DNA of 64,000 nt from a virus (taxonomy: Duplodnaviria; Caudoviricetes): the IMG/VR virus record IMGVR_UViG_3300029288_000084, positions 64,001 to 128,000 of that record; one strand, given 5' to 3'. Numbering within the stretch: the first letter of the stretch is position 1; every line of letters begins with the position of its first letter. A program made the position numbers and the translations under genes. Shown here in pieces: positions 3,277 to 63,633 of this stretch. The notes beneath the pieces were generated by a model. That model had not been told where the DNA came from. It did no database searches and worked only from the letters and a program-made list of their open reading frames with translations.

Positions 3277-3307
3277 ATTATAATATATTTAAGAAGTTAA
3301 TTTAGTA
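3277..3307 (-). promoter_or_regulatory. TACTAAA-N18-TATAAT promoter motif (copy 1)
   Basis: Exact motif and spacing seen six times; upstream of uvsY. Confidence 0.75.
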
Positions 3308-3309
3308 AA

Positions 3310-5565: not shown

Positions 5566-7190
5566 ACTTCTTCATCTTTTGGTTGAGGTTCTTTTTTCTT
5601 TGGTGGAACGGAATCCTCTTTTTTGGGTGGAAATTGACCACTTCCTCCAGAACTGCCACCAGCTCCCTCATTACCCAAATCAGGATTCAAAGCTGCCTCT
5701 TCTTTTGCTTTTTCTTCTCGGACTTTTTTACATTCTTCCTTTTTCTTCTTCCATTCTTCTTCTGTGTATTTCAAAATCTTGATTGCTATATCATCATCTG
5801 TGTAGTAAACGCCAACAAAATCTCTCATCTTGCTAGCAAGATCGAGTCTATTGTTAAGCATTTCAGATTCTTTAATTTCTTCATAGTAATTATCATTTGT
5901 GTAAATATAACGGAATTTTTTCTTTATTTTGTCTAAAGTTTCTTTCGTTAATTTACCTTTAAATAGTAATTGTCTGTAAAGAAGTTCTGTAAATAAGGTT
6001 GAAAATTGTTTTCGAAGTTTATTTATGAACTTCATAAACTTAACTTCATCTCTCTCAATTTGGGTACTTCTTCCACTATCAAAGAGTGCCTTTTCCTTTG
6101 TTTCACGTCTTGACTCAGGTACTTTTAATGCTTTGTAAACCTTCAATACAAAGTAATAAAGATCATCTAATTCCCCAAGATTTGATCCACCTGCTAATGT
6201 TGAAATCGAAGATCCTTGGCCGTTGGTACTTTTACCAACGTAAAAATCCTCAATCATAGCCATTGTATTTTTTGTATTTGTAACTTGGCCAGTAGCAGAA
6301 TCATAAACAATTCTGTTTTGGAATTTGTGAATCAGACTCTTAATGTATTCTTCTGCTTTGGGTTTTGATAAATTGCCAGTATCAATTGAAAATACTCTTT
6401 TTTCAGGTGCTCTTACAATTCGATAAATTACAATAGCATCTTCTATCAATCTTAAGTTGTTTATTGCCTTTAAAGCTTTGTGTAGATATGAGACTTCAAG
6501 TCCAGTAACTCTATCAGTTCTAGCACTGCCAATATGAACAACTAGATCAGGTGAAACTTTCCATCTTAATTGTTTTTGTGGATCTGTGTAAATCCAATAT
6601 GTTTCTTTTTCTTTGATCTTAAATTCTTGTCTATCCTTTTGCTCTAATATCTTTTTAACATTTAATGGATCGAGTCTGTTTATTTTTAGAATGCCATTAC
6701 TTGTATTTTTTTTGCCAACTACTACTTCTAAATCTAATCTCCCATCTATATACCAAGTTTCAAAGTAATCTTGACCTTTTTGATTGAAAGATAAAAGATC
6801 TAAAATATTATCAAATTCTTCTTCTATTTCTTTTTTGATAGTATCAGCTAAATCTTTTTTGTCAATTCCAGATAAGTCAAGTTTAACTGAAACATCTTCA
6901 GAATCATTTATTACAGACTCATTTACAATTTCATCAATTGCTTCACCAACCTCTGGATAATTTGAAATTAATCTCCACGTACGTGTGTATGATTCCAATT
7001 GTTGTGAATTTTTTTCAACGGTAGCATCTGCTGATGTATTATATTCAAATGTAATCTGATACATTCCACCAGGCAGTTCATTTGAAAATTCAGTTGTCTG
7101 GCTTCTTTCAATTTCAGTTGTTGGTTTATCAACAAAAATTTCTTTAGCAGGTGCTACACTCTTGCCCAACCAATCTTCTAGTAAATTCAT
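5562..7190 (-). CDS. gp20: portal protein
   Basis: WYIDGR, SYLHKALK..NNLRLIEDAIVIYRIVRAPEKRVF.IDTGNL, RDEVKF.KFI..LR. Confidence 0.97.
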   Translation of the reverse strand: MNLLEDWLGKSVAPAKEIFVDKPTTEIERSQTTEFSNELPGGMYQITFEYNTSADATVEKNSQQLESYTRTWRLISNYPEVGEAIDEIVNESVINDSEDVSVKLDLSGIDKKDLADTIKKEIEEEFDNILDLLSFNQKGQDYFETWYIDGRLDLEVVVGKKNTSNGILKINRLDPLNVKKILEQKDRQEFKIKEKETYWIYTDPQKQLRWKVSPDLVVHIGSARTDRVTGLEVSYLHKALKAINNLRLIEDAIVIYRIVRAPEKRVFSIDTGNLSKPKAEEYIKSLIHKFQNRIVYDSATGQVTNTKNTMAMIEDFYVGKSTNGQGSSISTLAGGSNLGELDDLYYFVLKVYKALKVPESRRETKEKALFDSGRSTQIERDEVKFMKFINKLRKQFSTLFTELLYRQLLFKGKLTKETLDKIKKKFRYIYTNDNYYEEIKESEMLNNRLDLASKMRDFVGVYYTDDDIAIKILKYTEEEWKKKKEECKKVREEKAKEEAALNPDLGNEGAGGSSGGSGQFPPKKEDSVPPKKKEPQPKDEEV

Positions 7191-18687: not shown

Positions 18688-18822
18688 TATTCACCTTCTC
18701 CGTTCTTAGTAAAACCAAGAACAATTGATTTTGTGTATTTCATTAATACACCTCCTTTTCAAAAATATATATAAAAAAGCCTCTAAAAATCATTATTTTT
18801 TATTTTTTTGACACGGAAAAAT

Positions 18823-18853
18823 TACTAAATAAATACCTTAATTATTATATAAT
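18823..18853 (+). promoter_or_regulatory. TACTAAA-N18-TATAAT promoter motif (copy 2, plus strand)
   Basis: Heads the only plus-strand island. Confidence 0.75.
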
Positions 18854-36989: not shown

Positions 36990-37427
36990 TTAATTTATAT
37001 ATTTCCATTGTTTATTATTTTTAATAAAAGATATTAAAGATTGACTTACATTAAATTTAGAAGCAATTAATTGTTGAGTTAAAGAACTCTTTTTAATTTC
37101 TTTTATCTCATCTTTAGTTAATTTTCTTCCTTGTCTACTCTTTTTAACCATATCTTGCATATTATCTCGATGTGTTCCTAAAAATAAATGATTTGGATTA
37201 ACACAAAGTGGATTATCACATTTATGTAAAACACAGAGATCTGTTGGAATTTGCTCTATAAAAATTTCATATGAAACACGATGGGCTAATTTCATTTTAT
37301 AGTTTATGCCAAATGCTCCATAACCATTTTTTTTAAATTTAGCACCAGTCCATCCCCAACAATCATTTGAAGAAGTTTGTATAAATTTTTTTAAAAAATT
37401 ACTTTTTTGTTTGTCTGTTAATATCAT
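36990..37427 (-). CDS. HNH homing endonuclease
   Basis: CWGWTG, GYG, AHRVSY, VLHKCDNPLCVNPNHL, C-terminal HTH. Confidence 0.92.
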   Translation of the reverse strand: MILTDKQKSNFLKKFIQTSSNDCWGWTGAKFKKNGYGAFGINYKMKLAHRVSYEIFIEQIPTDLCVLHKCDNPLCVNPNHLFLGTHRDNMQDMVKKSRQGRKLTKDEIKEIKKSSLTQQLIASKFNVSQSLISFIKNNKQWKYIN

Positions 37428-37433
37428 ATTTTT

Positions 37434-37464
37434 ATTATATATTATTTTAAATTCTTATTTAGTA
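37434..37464 (-). promoter_or_regulatory. TACTAAA-N18-TATAAT promoter motif (copy 3)
   Basis: Only 6 nt between the -10 and the HNH ATG (leaderless). Confidence 0.75.
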
Positions 37465-37550
37465 AATTAATCACTATATTTCATAAAATCCTAATTTTAT
37501 TGTTTTATTTAATTTCTTCATATAATATATTTATAAAAGAAGGGTTAAAT

Positions 37551-40767: not shown

Positions 40768-40798
40768 ATTATAATAAAAAATCAGTTTATATTTAGTA
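40768..40798 (-). promoter_or_regulatory. TACTAAA-N18-TATAAT promoter motif (copy 4)
   Basis: Heads the accessory / glycosylation gene run. Confidence 0.75.
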
Positions 40799-40803
40799 GA
40801 ACT

Positions 40804-42524: not shown

Positions 42525-45032
42525 TTATGCATGTACTATTTTCAAAACATCATCTGTTCTGTACAAATCCCCAACTGCTAACCCTGCTGTTACCGCAGCG
42601 GCATTGTCAGCATATTCCACAATGCCTTGAATATTTGTAACCCCTCCACTTGGAGTTATTTTAAGATTCCCCGCTGAAGATACGGCAAAGTCTGTATAAT
42701 AGGTTGCCGATCCATCTGCATCGTTGTAAGTCAGTCTTAGACAGTCGCCCGTTGCGGAGTTAATTTCTAGTTTTTTGTCAGGAGTGGTTGTGCCGATGCC
42801 GATATTGCCACTACCAAGAATCGTCATCAATCTTGTTGTGTAGTTTTGAAACGCAAATGCAGGATCTGTTGCCGCCAATAACCCATAACTTGTTCCTGAT
42901 TTTTTGCCACTCCAAAATGCAATAACAGGTGAAGTAGGGGCAGTATGGCCACTTATACCGATAAAGCCAAGAGCCGACATGTTAGCATAATTTCCACACA
43001 ATCCTCTAAAACTAGCACAACCTCTATCGTTTACGCCTTCTTCCATCGAAAAAAATACATTTGTTGGAACAATACTTGTCATTCCATGAGCAAGTCCTGA
43101 GTCTGAAAGTCTTAATATTTTGTCGTAGGATCCCATAATTTCAAGCGATGCTGATGGTGCAATCGTTCCTATTCCGACTTTATCACTTCCATCAATATAA
43201 ATTGGCGAGTTTGCAATTTTTGTAGCGGATGTGAATTTTGGAACATATCCGCTTGTACCTGTTGAATTTATTAATCCATTCCATGTAGATCCGTTGTAGT
43301 AATATGGTTGATGTAAAGTTGAATCATAAACTTGTAATCCCTCAATTGGTGCAGATATTGCTGTTCTTTGAGTTGTAGTCATTCTTGGTTCAGCAAAACC
43401 TTTTGCAGTAGAAGTTAAATCTAAAATTGCAGAAGCATCGGGGACGAGTATTCCAATCCCCATCCTATCAGCACTTACATCGCCATCATGAAATTCTACA
43501 TCTCCACCTGTTACATAAATTGCCTTATTGATTGAAGAACCCCAAGTAGGCTTTTCAATGTAGAGTTGATAGAGATTTACAACAGGTAATGCAGTACCAT
43601 CCATGGTTGGATCAGGAGTATAGTTACATAATTTGATATTGTAAGCATTTGTTATACTTGCTGTACCTGTATCGGTAAATTCAGCACCAACTTTAGAACG
43701 TATACCATATGCATTTACAATATTAGCTGAAGTACCATAGTAACTTCTTGCAGATACACAAACATCTAAACCATATGCATTTGTTATAACTGGTGTTTTA
43801 CTGCCAACTGATAATGCATAAACACTGTCTAGAAGTCCATAAGAATCAGTTGTAATTCCGCCTCTTGTTTGTGCTTGAGAAGCAATACCTTCTACTTGTT
43901 GGGTTGTTCCTTTTGTTACTGCACTTGAATCAAGTCCTACAACATAGGCTATATTCCCTGTCCCCATCTGATAGGAAGTAAATTTGCCAGAAACAAGAAA
44001 TGTATGAGGCATAGATAATGAACCAGAATTTACAAAATTCTCCACCTGCATATTATAAATACTTCTATCTGTATCTGTTGTAAATGCAGTTCCATCATAT
44101 TTCAAATAAAATTGTGTTTGTGTACTGTGACTATCTTTAGGAATTTGTGAGGCTATTATATTATCACTCACATACACATTCGAATTTAAATATAATTTTT
44201 GTGCCGCAGTAGTAGAAGCAAATTCACCATAAATCAATGCTTTGGTTCTTGCATCTGCTTCTGAGGCTCTTTGAGTATTGTCTATGAATAATTTATTAGA
44301 ACCTGTTTCATAATAACCTGCTCGATAACCAAGAAATATATTTGAAGAACCCGAAATATTATTATACCCCGCATCATGACCTATACCTATATTGGCATTT
44401 CCACTAACTAAATATTCTAAAGCATTTGAGCCAATTCCAATATTATGATGACCACTTTCGATTCTTTGTAATGATGCTATACCAATACCCACATTTCTAT
44501 ACCCAGTATTATTTGTACTTACAAAATTACCCCAACCTGACGCATAACCCATATAAATATTGTCTTCTGCACTTACATCTAAAGTTGATGGGTCATGACT
44601 ATTCATCATAATATTATTGCCAACATTAAACCATAGTGAATTAAGAGTTAATTTTCCATTTACATTTACGGTACTGCCATCATCACTAATTAATGAATTT
44701 CCTAAAACATGACTTCCTGTAAATTTCGGAATGTAATTTACAGTTCCAGAACCAGAAATTTTGTTTGTGTGTTCCTCTAATGTTAAATGATAATATTGCT
44801 CTGATTGTCCACCCTGTAAATCACTAGATGAATTATGTAAACCTATGTTTGAAATATTATTATGTTCTTCTAAAGTTAAATGATAATATTGTGCAGCTTG
44901 TCCACCTTGAAGACCAGGATGTAAATTATGGTTTACAACTGTTCCTGTAGATGCAATAATTGGTGGTGTTGCAACAATCTCGGCATTTATTTGTACTGGA
45001 CTTGCAACTGTTACATCTATATTTACACTCAT
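42525..45032 (-). CDS. tail fibre / receptor-binding protein
   Basis: N.G.G..AL beta-roll repeats, GIGT..P repeats, PRMTT.QR.AI. Confidence 0.8.
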   Translation of the reverse strand: MSVNIDVTVASPVQINAEIVATPPIIASTGTVVNHNLHPGLQGGQAAQYYHLTLEEHNNISNIGLHNSSSDLQGGQSEQYYHLTLEEHTNKISGSGTVNYIPKFTGSHVLGNSLISDDGSTVNVNGKLTLNSLWFNVGNNIMMNSHDPSTLDVSAEDNIYMGYASGWGNFVSTNNTGYRNVGIGIASLQRIESGHHNIGIGSNALEYLVSGNANIGIGHDAGYNNISGSSNIFLGYRAGYYETGSNKLFIDNTQRASEADARTKALIYGEFASTTAAQKLYLNSNVYVSDNIIASQIPKDSHSTQTQFYLKYDGTAFTTDTDRSIYNMQVENFVNSGSLSMPHTFLVSGKFTSYQMGTGNIAYVVGLDSSAVTKGTTQQVEGIASQAQTRGGITTDSYGLLDSVYALSVGSKTPVITNAYGLDVCVSARSYYGTSANIVNAYGIRSKVGAEFTDTGTASITNAYNIKLCNYTPDPTMDGTALPVVNLYQLYIEKPTWGSSINKAIYVTGGDVEFHDGDVSADRMGIGILVPDASAILDLTSTAKGFAEPRMTTTQRTAISAPIEGLQVYDSTLHQPYYYNGSTWNGLINSTGTSGYVPKFTSATKIANSPIYIDGSDKVGIGTIAPSASLEIMGSYDKILRLSDSGLAHGMTSIVPTNVFFSMEEGVNDRGCASFRGLCGNYANMSALGFIGISGHTAPTSPVIAFWSGKKSGTSYGLLAATDPAFAFQNYTTRLMTILGSGNIGIGTTTPDKKLEINSATGDCLRLTYNDADGSATYYTDFAVSSAGNLKITPSGGVTNIQGIVEYADNAAAVTAGLAVGDLYRTDDVLKIVHA

Positions 45033-56321: not shown

Positions 56322-57536
56322 TTATTCCCCTTCTGTAAAATTAATAGCGGGTGTGAGAATCGAACTCACCTTAAGTTGGTTATGAGCCAACTGAAGCACC
56401 TTGCCTCCTACCCGCAATTTTTCTTTTTTACAATTGTTACAATAATAAGTTCTACTACTTTTAGATTCAAATTCATTTTTGCATTGACAACAATTTAATT
56501 TATAAATTCTATTTTTCATTTGATTATGTTTTACTATTGATTTATTGCATTCGTTACAAAAGTATCTTGTACTACTATTACTAATAAATTCAATATGACA
56601 TTTTTTACAAATATTTGCACACTTTCTATTTTTATAATTTTGAATTTTTATTATTTTATATTCGTTGGACTTTTTATAATCTTGAATATTTTTTTGACAT
56701 TTATAACAAAAATTTTTATTACCGGTATTACTTTGGAATTCAGTATTACATTTTTTACATATTTTTTTCCAAATTTGTTGTTTTCTTTTTTCTTTAATCA
56801 ATAATTTAGATTCTTCTTTATGATTTTTTCTAAACATTCCATTTCTTTGGCCACTATTAGAAATTTTTAATTTTTGTTTTGTTTCTTCAGATGGATAAAT
56901 TCCCTTATGACTTTCACTATTTATTTTTTTTCTATTTTCATCTTGTTTCATACCTTTCAATGGACTAATATATCCTTGTTTCACTTTTTCTTTCCAAGTT
57001 ATTTTTTGTTTTAATTTATGTTCTTCTGAACAAGGTATCCCTTTATTATGTGACGGTTTTCCTTTTAAATGATGTTCACTATTTTTATATCTATTTTTTA
57101 ATGATGAACTAGTTTTTTTATTTGATGCTTCATCGCGATGTCTACCTGTTAATTTTATACTAATCTTTTTTCTAATTTCCGGTAAAACAAACCTTCCCTT
57201 TATTGCTTTTTTAGAAATTTCGTTCCAATTCCATTTAGCTCCCTTACTACCGCCGCCGCCATCTGCTAAGTTATACCCATTTGGAATTTTAGTTTTTAAT
57301 TTCTTAATCCATAACCTTTCATATTTATCTAACTCATTAAAATCAAAAATATTTTTAATTAATATCCAACGTTTAAAACATTGTAATCCATATTTTTTAA
57401 TTGAATTCCATAATTCTTTATTACAACTGGAACCCCAATAATTTGATTTTTGAAATTCTTCTTCGGAATTATAATAAATTGATTGCCCTATATACTTTTT
57501 TCCATTAATTAAATTTTGAATACAATAAATAATCAT
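56322..57536 (-). CDS. GIY-YIG homing endonuclease with NUMOD3-like and CxxC repeats
   Basis: IIYCIQNLINGKKYIG, Y.GS, GYNL..GG; paralog of 26829..27602. Confidence 0.9.
   Translation of the reverse strand: MIIYCIQNLINGKKYIGQSIYYNSEEEFQKSNYWGSSCNKELWNSIKKYGLQCFKRWILIKNIFDFNELDKYERLWIKKLKTKIPNGYNLADGGGGSKGAKWNWNEISKKAIKGRFVLPEIRKKISIKLTGRHRDEASNKKTSSSLKNRYKNSEHHLKGKPSHNKGIPCSEEHKLKQKITWKEKVKQGYISPLKGMKQDENRKKINSESHKGIYPSEETKQKLKISNSGQRNGMFRKNHKEESKLLIKEKRKQQIWKKICKKCNTEFQSNTGNKNFCYKCQKNIQDYKKSNEYKIIKIQNYKNRKCANICKKCHIEFISNSSTRYFCNECNKSIVKHNQMKNRIYKLNCCQCKNEFESKSSRTYYCNNCKKEKLRVGGKVLQLAHNQLKVSSILTPAINFTEGE
56345..56416 (-). tRNA. tRNA with CAT anticodon (Met-type; unpaired 1:72), no encoded CCA
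   Basis: GCGGGT/ACCCGC acceptor, GTTGG-CTCATAA-CCAAC anticodon arm, GTGAG-TTCGATT-CTCAC T arm. Confidence 0.85.
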
Positions 57537-59909: not shown

Positions 59910-59982
59910 AGGGAGGGGTAGGATTCGAACCTACATTTCACGGATCCACAATCCGTCGTTCTGCCAATTGAACTACCAACCC
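59910..59982 (-). tRNA. tRNA-His(GTG), atypical acceptor stem
   Basis: TAGTTCAATTGGCAGAAC D arm, ACGGA-TTGTGGA-TCCGT anticodon arm, GTAGG-TTCGAAT-CCTAC T arm; two acceptor mismatches. Confidence 0.75.
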
Positions 59983-59983
59983 A

Positions 59984-60784
59984 TTACTTAATTAAAATCA
60001 ATCCAGCTAGAACAGCTACAATAACCTCCCCTACCTTTCGCCAGAAGAGTTTATTCTTCAGGTTTTTAATTTTGCTGTTAGCAGTACCAAGATCTGTTTT
60101 AACTGATTTGATTTGTCGTTCGTAGATAATTTCATTTGTATCAACAGTTAATTTCAAATTGAATTCAATTCCCTTTAAATCATTTATTTGTGCTTTAAAC
60201 AAAGGAATTAATTCATCTTCATTTTTCTTATGCAATGTAAAAATTTTCTCATAATCAATTACGAACACAGAAAGGTCTTCTCTTTCTTTGGGCACAATCT
60301 CCATATAATTTCGATCTGCTACGATCTTGACATCAATATCATGTCTCTTTAAGGATGCCGCTAATTCAATATCCTTTTCTTTTTGAGATTTCTTTTTAAG
60401 ATCATTTTTGAAGTCTTCAAAATCATCTTCAATCTGTTTCTTTTCATTTTCTTTATCAAGAATCTTCTTATCTCTTTCAGCAACTCTAGCATCAGCTGCT
60501 ATAATATCCTTTGCTAGTGATTTTACAAACAACATCAATTTGGAAATTATTTTTTGATCCTCTTTGTATTGTTGAGCATTGATAGCATTTTCTTTTTCAA
60601 GTTTCTTCCCCTTCTGCCAGAGATAATAAGTTCTCCAACAAACAATCAAGAAAGAAAAAATAAGAATTGCAATTGCAATGTCTTTCAAATTTTTTGCCTT
60701 TAAAGAAGTAATAAATTTTACCACAACTTTTTTTACTGAAGCGAAAGCTTTTTTCAAAAATTCAATTACTTTTTTCATATTCAA
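59984..60784 (-). CDS. membrane-anchored coiled-coil protein (spanin-like?)
   Basis: N-terminal TM, long coiled coil, C-terminal hydrophobic segment. Confidence 0.5.
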   Translation of the reverse strand: MNMKKVIEFLKKAFASVKKVVVKFITSLKAKNLKDIAIAILIFSFLIVCWRTYYLWQKGKKLEKENAINAQQYKEDQKIISKLMLFVKSLAKDIIAADARVAERDKKILDKENEKKQIEDDFEDFKNDLKKKSQKEKDIELAASLKRHDIDVKIVADRNYMEIVPKEREDLSVFVIDYEKIFTLHKKNEDELIPLFKAQINDLKGIEFNLKLTVDTNEIIYERQIKSVKTDLGTANSKIKNLKNKLFWRKVGEVIVAVLAGLILIK

Positions 60785-61698
60785 TATCTCCTCTGTTGAA
60801 TTATTTTATCTATTTCATTTAATTGTATTTCATCTTTGGTAAAAGACAATTTGAACAATGGTGTACTTATACACATATGTGCAATCATATATCTCATCTT
60901 TTCTTGTTGAAAATGAGGCATAAGTTCAATCTGATTTTTATGCTCATTAAATATATATTTATAACATTCTCCAATTGAAATTTCTTGTAAAGAACAAGTA
61001 CAAGATTTTTCTAATATACAAATTGCTCCAAGTGGTACTCGCATATTTGCTGTATAAAGACCCCATGGAGTTCCACAGGCAATAAAACCTTCTGAAGTTT
61101 GCCTAACTAGTATTTGATCATCACATAAAATAAAATTTTTTGATAATTTAGCAGCAGTTGTTTTGCCACCTTCATCTGGAGCTAAGAATAGAATTGCTTT
61201 GTTATTTCTAACAATTGCAGATGTGTGAAGTAATATAGATGAAAAAGATGGGGCAAATACACTCAGCATCAATGATCCAATTATATTATTATTTTTAAAA
61301 TTTTCACTTAAGAAAAATATAGCAACATTTTTCTTAAAATCAAAAATACTAATTGAATTCTCGTTTATTTCAATTGTTAACATTTTACAATAACTTTTAG
61401 AAAAAAATAAGTAGTTTTGAAATTGAATAGAATACAAAATTTTAGATCGCATAAACGGAATGCCTACAACTGTTGCTTCTTTTAGGCATTGTTGCAATCT
61501 TTTATTAGGTAACATTCCACTATACATATTGGAATTAATTTTTATAATTCTCCATGTTATGTCGGGTTTAGATAAACTTTTATCAATAAGAAATGGATCA
61601 AATTCTTGATCTATTGGGTATTCTAAATAATTACAAAAAATCTTCAAACCACCGATATCAATATTTGTGTGCATTTCAGTGATGATGACCTGCAGCAC
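60781..61698 (-). CDS. HprK-related P-loop kinase-like protein (ScmC / lasso-kinase type)
   Basis: LLHTSAI, AILFLAPDEGGKTT, LCDD, GTPWG, PLGAI..L. Confidence 0.8.
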   Translation of the reverse strand: MLQVIITEMHTNIDIGGLKIFCNYLEYPIDQEFDPFLIDKSLSKPDITWRIIKINSNMYSGMLPNKRLQQCLKEATVVGIPFMRSKILYSIQFQNYLFFSKSYCKMLTIEINENSISIFDFKKNVAIFFLSENFKNNNIIGSLMLSVFAPSFSSILLHTSAIVRNNKAILFLAPDEGGKTTAAKLSKNFILCDDQILVRQTSEGFIACGTPWGLYTANMRVPLGAICILEKSCTCSLQEISIGECYKYIFNEHKNQIELMPHFQQEKMRYMIAHMCISTPLFKLSFTKDEIQLNEIDKIIQQRRY

Positions 61699-61903
61699 TA
61701 CCTACATTGCAATATGCACTTGGAAATCCACCACTTTGACAAGAACCTAAATAAGGCGACATACCACTTCTACATTCAGGTTCAGGCGGTTTAATTCCAC
61801 ACCCACTTTTACATTCACAATTTGGGCTATAAGAAGTTTGACCTATTACAATGCGAGAATTACAATCAATAGAAACGGGTGGTTCATATTTTATCTTTTT
61901 CAT
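61676..61903 (-). CDS. Cys-rich RiPP-like precursor peptide
   Basis: KYEPP leader; repeated CxSG/CxxG core; overlaps the kinase start. Confidence 0.65.
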   Translation of the reverse strand: MKKIKYEPPVSIDCNSRIVIGQTSYSPNCECKSGCGIKPPEPECRSGMSPYLGSCQSGGFPSAYCNVGSAAGHHH

Positions 61904-61909
61904 ATTTAA

Positions 61910-61940
61910 ATTATATACTAAACCTAAAATTAATTTAGTA
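61910..61940 (-). promoter_or_regulatory. TACTAAA-N18-TATAAT promoter motif (copy 5)
   Basis: Only 6 nt between the -10 and the precursor ATG (leaderless). Confidence 0.75.
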
Positions 61941-61945
61941 AAAAT

Positions 61946-62647: not shown

Positions 62648-63574
62648 TTATGTTTTATTCACATTTCTTATGAATAGCACATCTTCGTTTGATGCATTTT
62701 TAGAAAATTCCAACCAACGCTTTTGATTCTTTATGCCTGAAATTTGTGCCATCCATTCGATTGCTTCCTTAAAATTTGTGTTTATCATTATAGCATGAAT
62801 ACAAGTTTCTCTAGCTTCATTTCCACGATTTAAAAACCAAAGACATTTTGATAATTGAAAATACACTTCAGCAACTTCAGGTGCCCAAACCTTTGTTTTA
62901 GAAATTTCTAAGTACATTGAATAGTAGTAAAGTGCAGTGATGTAATCAAATCTGTAAACATATTCTCTAGCAAGATAAAATATAGATCTTATATCGTTTG
63001 GATTTTTTGTAACTTCTTGTTTTAAAATTCTTAATGATCTATTGGGGTCGGTTTTATGTGTTGGTGAATAATCATATACAACTGTAATATCTAGATATTT
63101 TGTTGCAGTAGAATTTATATAATTATGAACTGCCCCAACCCAGTAAACTTCACCACTCTTTTTGTATAATCTAGGAGATAAATGTTTTGTCGTTCCATCA
63201 ACAGAAATGACATTCACGTTTATCGCATTTGTTTTACCATCATCTAGTTGAGGGAGTAACATTTTTATTTTTGCTATTCCATCTTGTTCAAGTTGTTCAT
63301 CTGCATCAATCGTTAACACCCAATCTCCAGTTACATATTCTAATGCTTTGTTTCTTGCTTCAGCAAAATTATCATTCCATTTGTAAACATTTTCTATATA
63401 ATTAACATTATCTATAACATTTTGATATATAGTAAAATCTGCTACTATTTCTCGAGTTTTATCAGTTGAACCAGTATCTAATATAATTATTTCATCAGCA
63501 TCTTTTACTGATGATAAACATTTTTTGATCATCTCTTCTTCATTTTTGACTATCATACAAACGGAAAGTTTCAT
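62648..63574 (-). CDS. GT2 glycosyltransferase with TPR-like C-terminus (protein/peptide-glycosylating type)
   Basis: LSVCMIVKNEE, DTGSTD.T, W.DNFA.ARN, IDADE, helical FYLARE repeats. Confidence 0.88.
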   Translation of the reverse strand: MKLSVCMIVKNEEEMIKKCLSSVKDADEIIILDTGSTDKTREIVADFTIYQNVIDNVNYIENVYKWNDNFAEARNKALEYVTGDWVLTIDADEQLEQDGIAKIKMLLPQLDDGKTNAINVNVISVDGTTKHLSPRLYKKSGEVYWVGAVHNYINSTATKYLDITVVYDYSPTHKTDPNRSLRILKQEVTKNPNDIRSIFYLAREYVYRFDYITALYYYSMYLEISKTKVWAPEVAEVYFQLSKCLWFLNRGNEARETCIHAIMINTNFKEAIEWMAQISGIKNQKRWLEFSKNASNEDVLFIRNVNKT

Positions 63575-63591
63575 TATTTACCTCTCTATTA

Positions 63592-63622
63592 ATTATATTA
63601 TATTTTCAACGAATGTTTAGTA
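63592..63622 (-). promoter_or_regulatory. TACTAAA-N18-TATAAT promoter motif (copy 6)
   Basis: Upstream of GT2-TPR gene. Confidence 0.75.
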
Positions 63623-63633
63623 AATTAATATTA

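Follow-up and report, generated by a model that had tools for sequence, protein, structure and literature searches.

Gene pair and promoter

We analysed a 64,000-nucleotide stretch of phage DNA (hereafter the window), bases 64001-128000 of the 152,932-bp IMG/VR virus record IMGVR_UViG_3300029288_000084 (estimated to be 85% complete), and focused on a pair of minus-strand genes placed between the baseplate genes and a glycosyltransferase gene. The first gene (61676-61903) encodes a precursor-type peptide of 75 amino acid residues, and the second (60781-61674, ATG start) encodes an enzyme of 297 residues from the ScmC family, which is known from the bacterial SynChlorMet (SCM) cassettes. An original prediction, made from the nucleotide sequence alone, had described this pair as a unit resembling those for peptides that are made by the ribosome and modified after translation (RiPPs), composed of a Cys-rich precursor and an HprK-like kinase. 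Both open reading frames were found on the minus strand and the observation as a whole was confirmed. The window has about 30% G+C and carries nearly every gene on the minus strand. Its baseplate wedge protein, of the gp6 type, shares about 30% identity with the counterparts of T4-like cyanophages, which makes the phage a distant T4-like myovirus. The stretch is present in landfill and groundwater metagenomes, with most of it recovered in two studies in addition to the possible source sample.

The junction of the two genes reads TGA-A-ATG, and this 1-nt spacer makes translational coupling of the peptide and the enzyme likely. In all three phage-type copies of the pair (described below), the enzyme start is at most 5 nt from, or overlaps, the peptide stop. 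An alternative GTG start at 61698 would give an enzyme of 305 residues, and the overlap of the two genes in the original prediction holds only with this start. With the ATG at 61674, which is favoured by the alignment of 30 homologous enzymes beginning at this codon, the genes do not overlap.

Directly upstream of the peptide gene is a promoter-like motif, TTTACTAAA-N18-TATAAT (61910-61942, minus strand). A scan of the window found six copies (3277-3309(-), 18821-18853(+), 37434-37466(-), 40768-40800(-), 61910-61942(-) and 63592-63624(-)), compared with 0.06 expected by chance, and the motif also heads the gene pair in another viral contig, L005 (at about 5604-5636). These copies support the earlier proposal that the pair has its own phage-type promoter. 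A generic sigma-70 promoter scan of the window showed no enrichment (28 found, 27.6 expected), nor did the generic terminator scan run with it. TTTACT and TATAAT are 21 nt apart, which exceeds the standard -35/-10 spacing of sigma-70 promoters, so the upstream box may be a site for an activator or an alternative factor. The TATAAT ends 6 nt 5' of the peptide ATG with no Shine-Dalgarno sequence (61901-61909). Likewise, a gene for an HNH endonuclease in the window has TATAAT 6 nt 5' of its ATG and no Shine-Dalgarno sequence (37425-37433). Because of this short gap and the lack of a Shine-Dalgarno sequence, the mRNAs of the peptide and the HNH endonuclease may be leaderless.

Phage-type copies and natural variants

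In IMG/VR there was just one other copy of the pair, in L005 (30.7% G+C), with a peptide 53% identical and an enzyme 38% identical to those of the window. The neighbours differ: in L005, genes for an HNH endonuclease and a T4-type RNase H come after the pair. The presence of the pair in a second phage at another genomic position, under the same type of promoter, argues that it benefits the phage. A third, closely similar peptide-enzyme pair was found on a short JGI contig, L087. The core of the peptide is well conserved in these three phage-type copies (for example, C-Q-S-G-G-x-P-S-x-x-C-x-V-G-S-A-A), suggesting a functional product rather than a mere leader decoy. Among GenBank phages, a megablast search with the region gave no match, a tblastn search of 50,697 records gave no homologue of the peptide, and a tblastn search with ScmC gave only two weak P-loop matches, both in unannotated faecal phage contigs.

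Natural variants of the enzyme gene were also observed. Two runs, X2 (groundwater) and X3 (landfill), each from a different study, contain two coexisting haplotypes that are 9-13% divergent at 60795-60946 and 61159-61320. The frame is kept because a 1-nt deletion is offset by a 1-nt insertion 3 nt away. In the divergent haplotypes from other studies, the enzyme frame is open and the invariant residues are spared.

The cysteine-repeat peptide

The peptide begins MKKIKYEPP, has a basic N-terminus and ends with HHH. Its leader (approximately residues 1-22) contains Y-x-x-P-x3-D and ends near a G-Q, and its core has seven Cys residues and includes four C-x-x-G units (CKSG, CRSG, CQSG and CNVG). 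The Cys-rich peptide with this start and these four units is thus present as claimed. In an alignment of 29 sequences (alignment A2), Y6, P9, G21, C55, G58, C65 and G68 are invariant and D13 is nearly so; the Y-x-x-P leader noted earlier is therefore an invariant feature of the aligned sequences. The core repeat is approximately G-x-C-x-x-G-[S/G]-x-[P/A], and the phage core consists of C-x-x-G-x-x-P repeats. Ser and Thr are enriched in the repeat unit with none of them fixed, and the invariant residues of the core are Cys and Gly only.

A profile search with the precursor family detected the window peptide at E = 1.3e-8. The peptide fits the C-x-x-G family in its Y-x-x-P-x3-D leader, its G-Q junction, its C-x-x-G units (at least three in the family) and its position directly 5' of ScmC. 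The same layout is shared by a small, uncalled open reading frame directly 5' of the ScmC homologue in two Aminicenantes loci. No Pfam or NCBIfam model matches this peptide family. The ScmA model TIGR04252 (cut-off 35 bits) matched nothing in the phage genome at E values up to 10, and never exceeded its cut-off in five genomes with full SynChlorMet cassettes.

The ScmC-family enzyme

The enzyme (P0001) belongs to Pfam PF27840 (ScmC) by precomputed assignment. Scans against PHROG and a copy of Pfam without PF27840 gave no match for either the peptide or the enzyme, and neither Hpr_kinase_C nor PEPCK_ATP of Pfam matched the enzyme. The NCBIfam ScmC model TIGR04249 matched it in the P-loop region only (15.5 bits, E = 0.0085), below the equivalog cut-off of 125. 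This model matched 26 of 30 family members, none of them strongly (best E = 5.6e-9), and the HprK-related kinase A model matched 17 of the 30 (best HprK_rel_A E = 6.5e-4). A word-indexed search returned 32 relatives, nearly all with a PF27840 assignment, the best non-self match being 40% identical. Among 1.84 billion cluster representatives, a profile search found 230 of the ScmC family at E < 1e-30.

Counting from the ATG at 61674, the residues invariant in the 30 homologues and kept in the phage are H150, APDEGGKTT (165-173), D185-D186 and GTPW (201-204). H150 is within H-T-S, and the Ser of H-x-S is not invariant. The H-x-S, GGKTT, DD and GTPW motifs of the original prediction are therefore real, and apart from this Ser they are invariant.

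An AlphaFold2 model of the enzyme (predicted local distance difference test score, 92.8; predicted template modelling score, 0.90) was compared with known structures. The top 50 PDB matches from Foldseek were phosphoenolpyruvate carboxykinases (PEPCK) or HprK/P, with E values down to 8e-6, except for one unrelated cryo-electron microscopy chain at rank 34. VIA-align with the Thermus PEPCK gave a Z score of 13.2 over 234 aligned residues with a root-mean-square deviation of 4.6 Å, spanning residues 1-297. Judging from the model, the enzyme has the PEPCK/HPr-kinase P-loop fold, and this fold together with the PF27840 assignment bears out its earlier description as ScmC/HprK-related. A search of the family profile against PDB sequences found only PEPCK 1ii2 (E = 0.39), and paired H150, GGKTT and DD of ScmC with MHASAN, GTGKTT and GDDEH of PEPCK, which are the Mn-binding, P-loop/Mg-ATP-binding and metal-binding residues of that enzyme, respectively. 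Because of the modelled fold and the intact nucleotide- and metal-binding residues that align with those of PEPCK, ScmC looks like an active metal-dependent nucleotide phosphotransferase.

Conservation of the pair and phylogenetic position

By clustering, 29 of 34 loci, representing at least six phyla, had a homologous small open reading frame directly 5' of the gene for the ScmC homologue; the pair thus recurs in many uncultured bacteria. In metagenomes, the peptide was found 5' of ScmC in 29 of 46 loci, and in most of the remaining loci the contig has hardly any sequence upstream. This adjacency is far above chance. The peptide is thus conserved beside the homologues of the enzyme, and the kinase does not group with families never linked to peptides; the original proposal of a RiPP-type unit of precursor and enzyme is supported on both counts.

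Precursor and ScmC are surrounded by a full SynChlorMet cassette in 28 loci. The order of the genes is ScmD (PqqD), ScmE and ScmF (both radical S-adenosylmethionine (SAM)/SPASM), precursor, ScmC, an S26 signal-peptidase-like protein and an MsbA-like ATP-binding cassette (ABC) exporter. The NCBIfam models were TIGR04252 (ScmA), TIGR04249 (ScmC), TIGR04248 (ScmD), TIGR04250 (ScmE) and TIGR04251 (ScmF), and the cassettes reach or approach the cut-offs for ScmD, ScmE and ScmF (for example, ScmE 401 bits and ScmF 361 bits in the cassette of L020). ScmE from the full cassettes matches the PapB family (E = 1.9e-24). A bare precursor and ScmC, often beside ychF, were found in at least ten loci, where only loci with flanks of at least 3.5 kb upstream and at least 2.5 kb downstream were counted.

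We then reconstructed a maximum likelihood tree of 63 ScmC sequences. One clade of 19 sequences (support 100/99) is made up of minimal pairs, the phages and sequences on contigs whose shortness precluded classification, and includes no full cassette. The two phage sequences are sisters (99/99), and they group with a sequence from Aminicenantes and one from a draft genome of Chrysiogenales. The original prediction regarded the pair as a captured partial cassette. This part was not upheld, since the phage ScmC nests (99/99) within the clade lacking full cassettes (100/99). Because it nests in a clade free of radical SAM genes, the phage pair is a natural, complete two-gene unit and not a truncated cassette. 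As far as the compared sequences go, the phage pair is shown to originate from this radical-SAM-free bacterial clade.

Helper genes in the phage and in bacteria

The absence of PqqD and SCM radical SAM genes, originally stated for the window, extends to the whole phage record. No PqqD was found in the 152.9-kb record (85% complete) at E values up to 1, and neither ScmE nor ScmF was found in the record, where the best ScmE score (29 bits) was on a QueE-like gene. No RiPP recognition element (RRE), SpI/S26 leader peptidase or MsbA-like exporter was found in the neighbourhood of the pair. The QueE-like gene, the only radical SAM gene in the record, is outside the window together with a PTPS/QueD gene (G000:C1 about 43143-44394, or L001 1099-2350, minus strand). 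We considered it as a maturase for the peptide and rejected it because it is QueE-like and adjoins PTPS/QueD; the two genes probably belong to a 7-deazaguanine pathway unrelated to the peptide.

We also searched 14 bacterial genomes, of which 13 with a minimal or unclassified pair were tallied and one (G014) was excluded as its sequence falls in the cassette-linked clade. ScmE of 360-402 bits was encoded elsewhere in six of the 13 genomes (G001, G002, G003, G007, G009 and G011), and G004 has an ScmE fragment at a contig end. ScmE was undetected in the remaining six pair-bearing genomes; these are all drafts assembled from metagenomes, and thus the absence is weak evidence. The ScmE loci of G001, G002 and G003, examined with their flanks, are large radical SAM islands that hold further C-x-x-G precursors (L037 11338-11628(+); L039 2843-3034(-) and 7245-7514(-); L038 9412-9609(+)) and also have ScmC genes, or short and divergent ScmC-like ones, of their own; two of these three islands have only a short divergent ScmC-like gene of about 226 residues. 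The idea that the ychF-adjacent pair supplies the sole ScmC to islands lacking it was rejected, because the islands have these short divergent genes of their own. In addition, genomes of the Aminicenantes type have frames of 677-696 residues (G003:C10:70502-72343, G001:C34:6743-8614 and G001:C25:41259-43112), which appear from their matches to a radical SAM domain and to the ScmC/HprK-like P-loop region to be radical SAM-kinase fusions.

Comparison with known systems

Like the SynChlorMet cassettes, the phage pair has a C-x-x-G precursor immediately before ScmC, and the phage enzyme is in Pfam ScmC; unlike them, the phage has the precursor and ScmC only, without ScmD, ScmE, ScmF, the S26 peptidase and the exporter. 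Family databases have listed the SynChlorMet cassette for years, and our literature search found no paper on the cassette, its product or ScmC (the gene names retrieved unrelated acronyms). A literature search on phage RiPPs returned nothing specific.

Among characterized systems, the pathway for linear polyphosphorylated peptides (LPPs) is the closest to the phage pair. In its clusters in Bacillota, lppA-K-B-S-D-N (Popov et al., Nat Commun 2026, PMC13381572), a Y-x-x-P precursor is also combined with an HprK-like kinase, which installs the primary modification. LppK polyphosphorylates core Ser3 of the precursor, and deletion of lppK abolishes the modification (PMC13381572). LPP clusters and full SCM cassettes both have an RRE, an S26-type leader peptidase and an MsbA-like exporter. 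However, the LPP cores are not Cys repeats, and LppK works with the RRE protein LppB, a peptidase and an exporter, all missing from the phage neighbourhood. Sequence similarity between ScmC and HprK-related kinases is also marginal. The HprK-like kinases of lasso peptide clusters are stated to behave as LppK does (PMC13381572). Those of the paeninodin type are in the same P-loop superfamily and act on a ribosomal precursor with a Y-x-x-P leader (PMC13381572), but the phage has neither a lasso cyclase nor B1/B2 proteins nor a core of the macrolactam type, and its enzyme, in contrast to the lasso kinases, is PEPCK-like over the whole protein including the N-lobe.

HprK/P and ATP-dependent PEPCK (1knx, 1kkl, 2pc9 and 1ii2) have a fold and a His...G-x-G-K-T-T...D-D arrangement equivalent to those of ScmC, although the identity is only 8-14% and the context of ScmC is a peptide gene rather than the phosphotransferase system or gluconeogenesis. 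Ranthipeptides and sactipeptides of the PapB/freyrasin type resemble the phage peptide in having a core of repeated short Cys motifs. They depend on a radical SAM maturase with no counterpart in the phage, and therefore thioether cross-linking by radical SAM chemistry would be impossible without host enzymes.

What is new here is the carriage of such a pair by a lytic-type phage, the lack of even a recognition protein and the formation of a clade of their own by the bare pairs. The pair is a rare instance of a RiPP-style unit in a lytic-type phage. As the smallest version of SynChlorMet seen here, it allows the chemistry of ScmC to be separated from confounding partners, and an activity learned on it would extend to the approximately 230 ScmC-family clusters at E < 1e-30.

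Proposed chemistry and alternative explanations

We propose that the pair is a self-contained two-gene module for peptide modification, carried by a T4-like phage as cargo with its own promoter, and consider the chances of this interpretation to be about even. The most likely chemistry, by analogy and with a similarly balanced degree of confidence, would be ATP-dependent phosphorylation of the peptide by ScmC, as in the phosphorylated-peptide option of the original prediction; it is favoured by the fold, the intact catalytic residues, the type of leader, the coupling of the genes and the precedent of LppK and the lasso kinases. Our inferences on the substrate of the enzyme, its phosphorylation, the residue that is modified and the biological role are as follows. 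ScmC would bind the leader directly, since there is no PqqD-type recognition protein. With Mg- or Mn-ATP, it would then transfer one or more phosphoryl groups onto the core, where the acceptors would most likely be the Ser and Thr residues that are enriched within the C-x-x-G units and immediately C-terminal to them. The product would act within the infected cell, because the phage supplies no leader peptidase or exporter.

Several observations weigh against this proposal. The core has no invariant Ser or Thr, only invariant Cys and Gly, so Cys-directed chemistry is equally compatible with the alignment. The LPP and lasso kinases are accompanied by a separate RRE and the phage pair has none; a comparison of the ScmC N-lobe with the ScmD alignment using hhalign found no RRE/PqqD domain there (probability 0.05). 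The structure is nearer to PEPCK, whose substrate is a small molecule and not a peptide, than to HprK/P, and the enzyme sequence resembles those of characterized HprK-like peptide kinases only weakly (best E = 6.5e-4, to HprK_rel_A). Moreover, about half of the pair-bearing bacterial genomes also hold SCM radical SAM islands, and the autonomy of the minimal pair is thus not proven.

An autonomous RiPP system of a more unusual kind can also be envisaged, in which the PEPCK-fold enzyme alone reads the Y-x-x-P leader and installs on the C-x-x-G units a chemistry undescribed for this fold. Candidates are S-phosphorylation of Cys, or phosphorylation of Ser/Thr followed by elimination and addition of Cys to form thioether rings, and the phage would use such a product, for example, to take over the host, to handle metals or thiols, or in signalling. 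We regard this possibility as unlikely. Somewhat less unlikely, and still tentative, is the borrowing of host maturases raised in the original prediction, whereby the phage ScmC would prime or escort the phage peptide and the SynChlorMet machinery of the host (PqqD, two radical SAM/SPASM proteins, the S26 peptidase and the ABC exporter) would complete it to give a phage-specified variant of a cross-linked, exported host peptide. The precursor family heads full cassettes in 28 loci, the Y-x-x-P leader is of the motif type bound by PqqD-type recognition proteins (PMC13381572), and besides the six of 13 pair genomes with ScmE elsewhere and the fragment in G004, three ScmE islands have more C-x-x-G precursors. 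This dependence on the host is, however, not readily reconciled with the six pair genomes in which no ScmE was detected (all metagenome drafts), with the separation of the minimal-pair clade from cassette-linked ScmC in the tree, or with the divergent ScmC-like genes that the bacterial islands have of their own. Furthermore, the phage leader lacks the D-L-S-G stretch typical of bacterial leaders, and the G+C content of the phage is about 30%, compared with 55-60% in the genomes of the nearest bacterial ScmC relatives.

If the host does have SynChlorMet machinery, the peptide, the enzyme or both might instead act as a decoy, another idea of the original prediction, and titrate or mis-modify it and thereby shut down the host peptide product. 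The leader motif common to host-type precursors, the presence of a phage promoter and the lack of export and processing genes are in line with such interference, but we consider it very improbable, because a leader decoy needs no core, yet the core is conserved in the three phage-type copies as well as the leader, and because an enzyme predicted from its residues to be catalytically intact would be needless. The peptide might also not be a substrate at all but a cofactor, a regulator or a metal- or thiol-binding partner of a ScmC whose phosphorylation target is a host protein or a small molecule. The best full-length structural matches are PEPCKs, which are small-molecule enzymes, and a core with only Cys and Gly fixed, no fixed hydroxyl acceptor and a C-terminal HHH would suit such a role. 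On the other hand, the layout of leader and repeat core is typical of precursors of modified peptides, and the full cassettes place the peptide among PqqD, radical SAM/SPASM proteins, the S26 peptidase and the exporter, a context that identifies it as what the system modifies. We think this role quite unlikely. The most improbable explanation, to which we give hardly any weight, is a glycocin-like one, in which the nearby glycosyltransferase with a family 2 (GT2) domain and tetratricopeptide repeats (TPR) S-glycosylates the Cys residues of the peptide. Its gene is two genes upstream on the same strand with the same promoter motif, and the best NCBIfam match is the SunS peptide S-glycosyltransferase (E = 1.3e-17). 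Nevertheless, this match covers the generic GT2 domain only and, at 63.7 bits, is below the cut-off of 350; the pair has no neighbouring glycosyltransferase gene in L005 or any bacterial locus examined.

Neighbouring genes

Downstream of the ScmC gene is a gene for a protein of 266 residues (59984..60784, minus strand), with a TTG start that is preceded by GGAG and has a 4-nt overlap with the ScmC stop. The gene is probably cotranscribed with the pair. It has no Pfam family and a weak match to an Rz-like spanin PHROG (E = 0.13). Since no homologue of this gene is encoded beside the pair in L005, the sequences compared place it as context rather than as a conserved partner. A tRNA-His gene (anticodon GTG; 59910-59982, minus strand) is immediately 3' of the operon containing the pair. 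Upstream of the pair, the GT2-TPR glycosyltransferase gene (62648-63574, minus strand) matches PHROG 13126 and has the TTTACTAAA-N18-TATAAT motif, as the peptide gene does.

The HNH homing-endonuclease gene of the window (36990-37427, minus strand) encodes a protein 42% identical to that of an L005 gene (6840-7340(+)), and this L005 gene is directly 3' of the peptide-ScmC pair there. The sequences hint that homing endonucleases may help to mobilize cargo such as the pair. Elsewhere in the window, a tRNA-Met gene (anticodon CAT; 56344-56417, minus strand) overlaps the 3' end of the open reading frame at 56322-57536.

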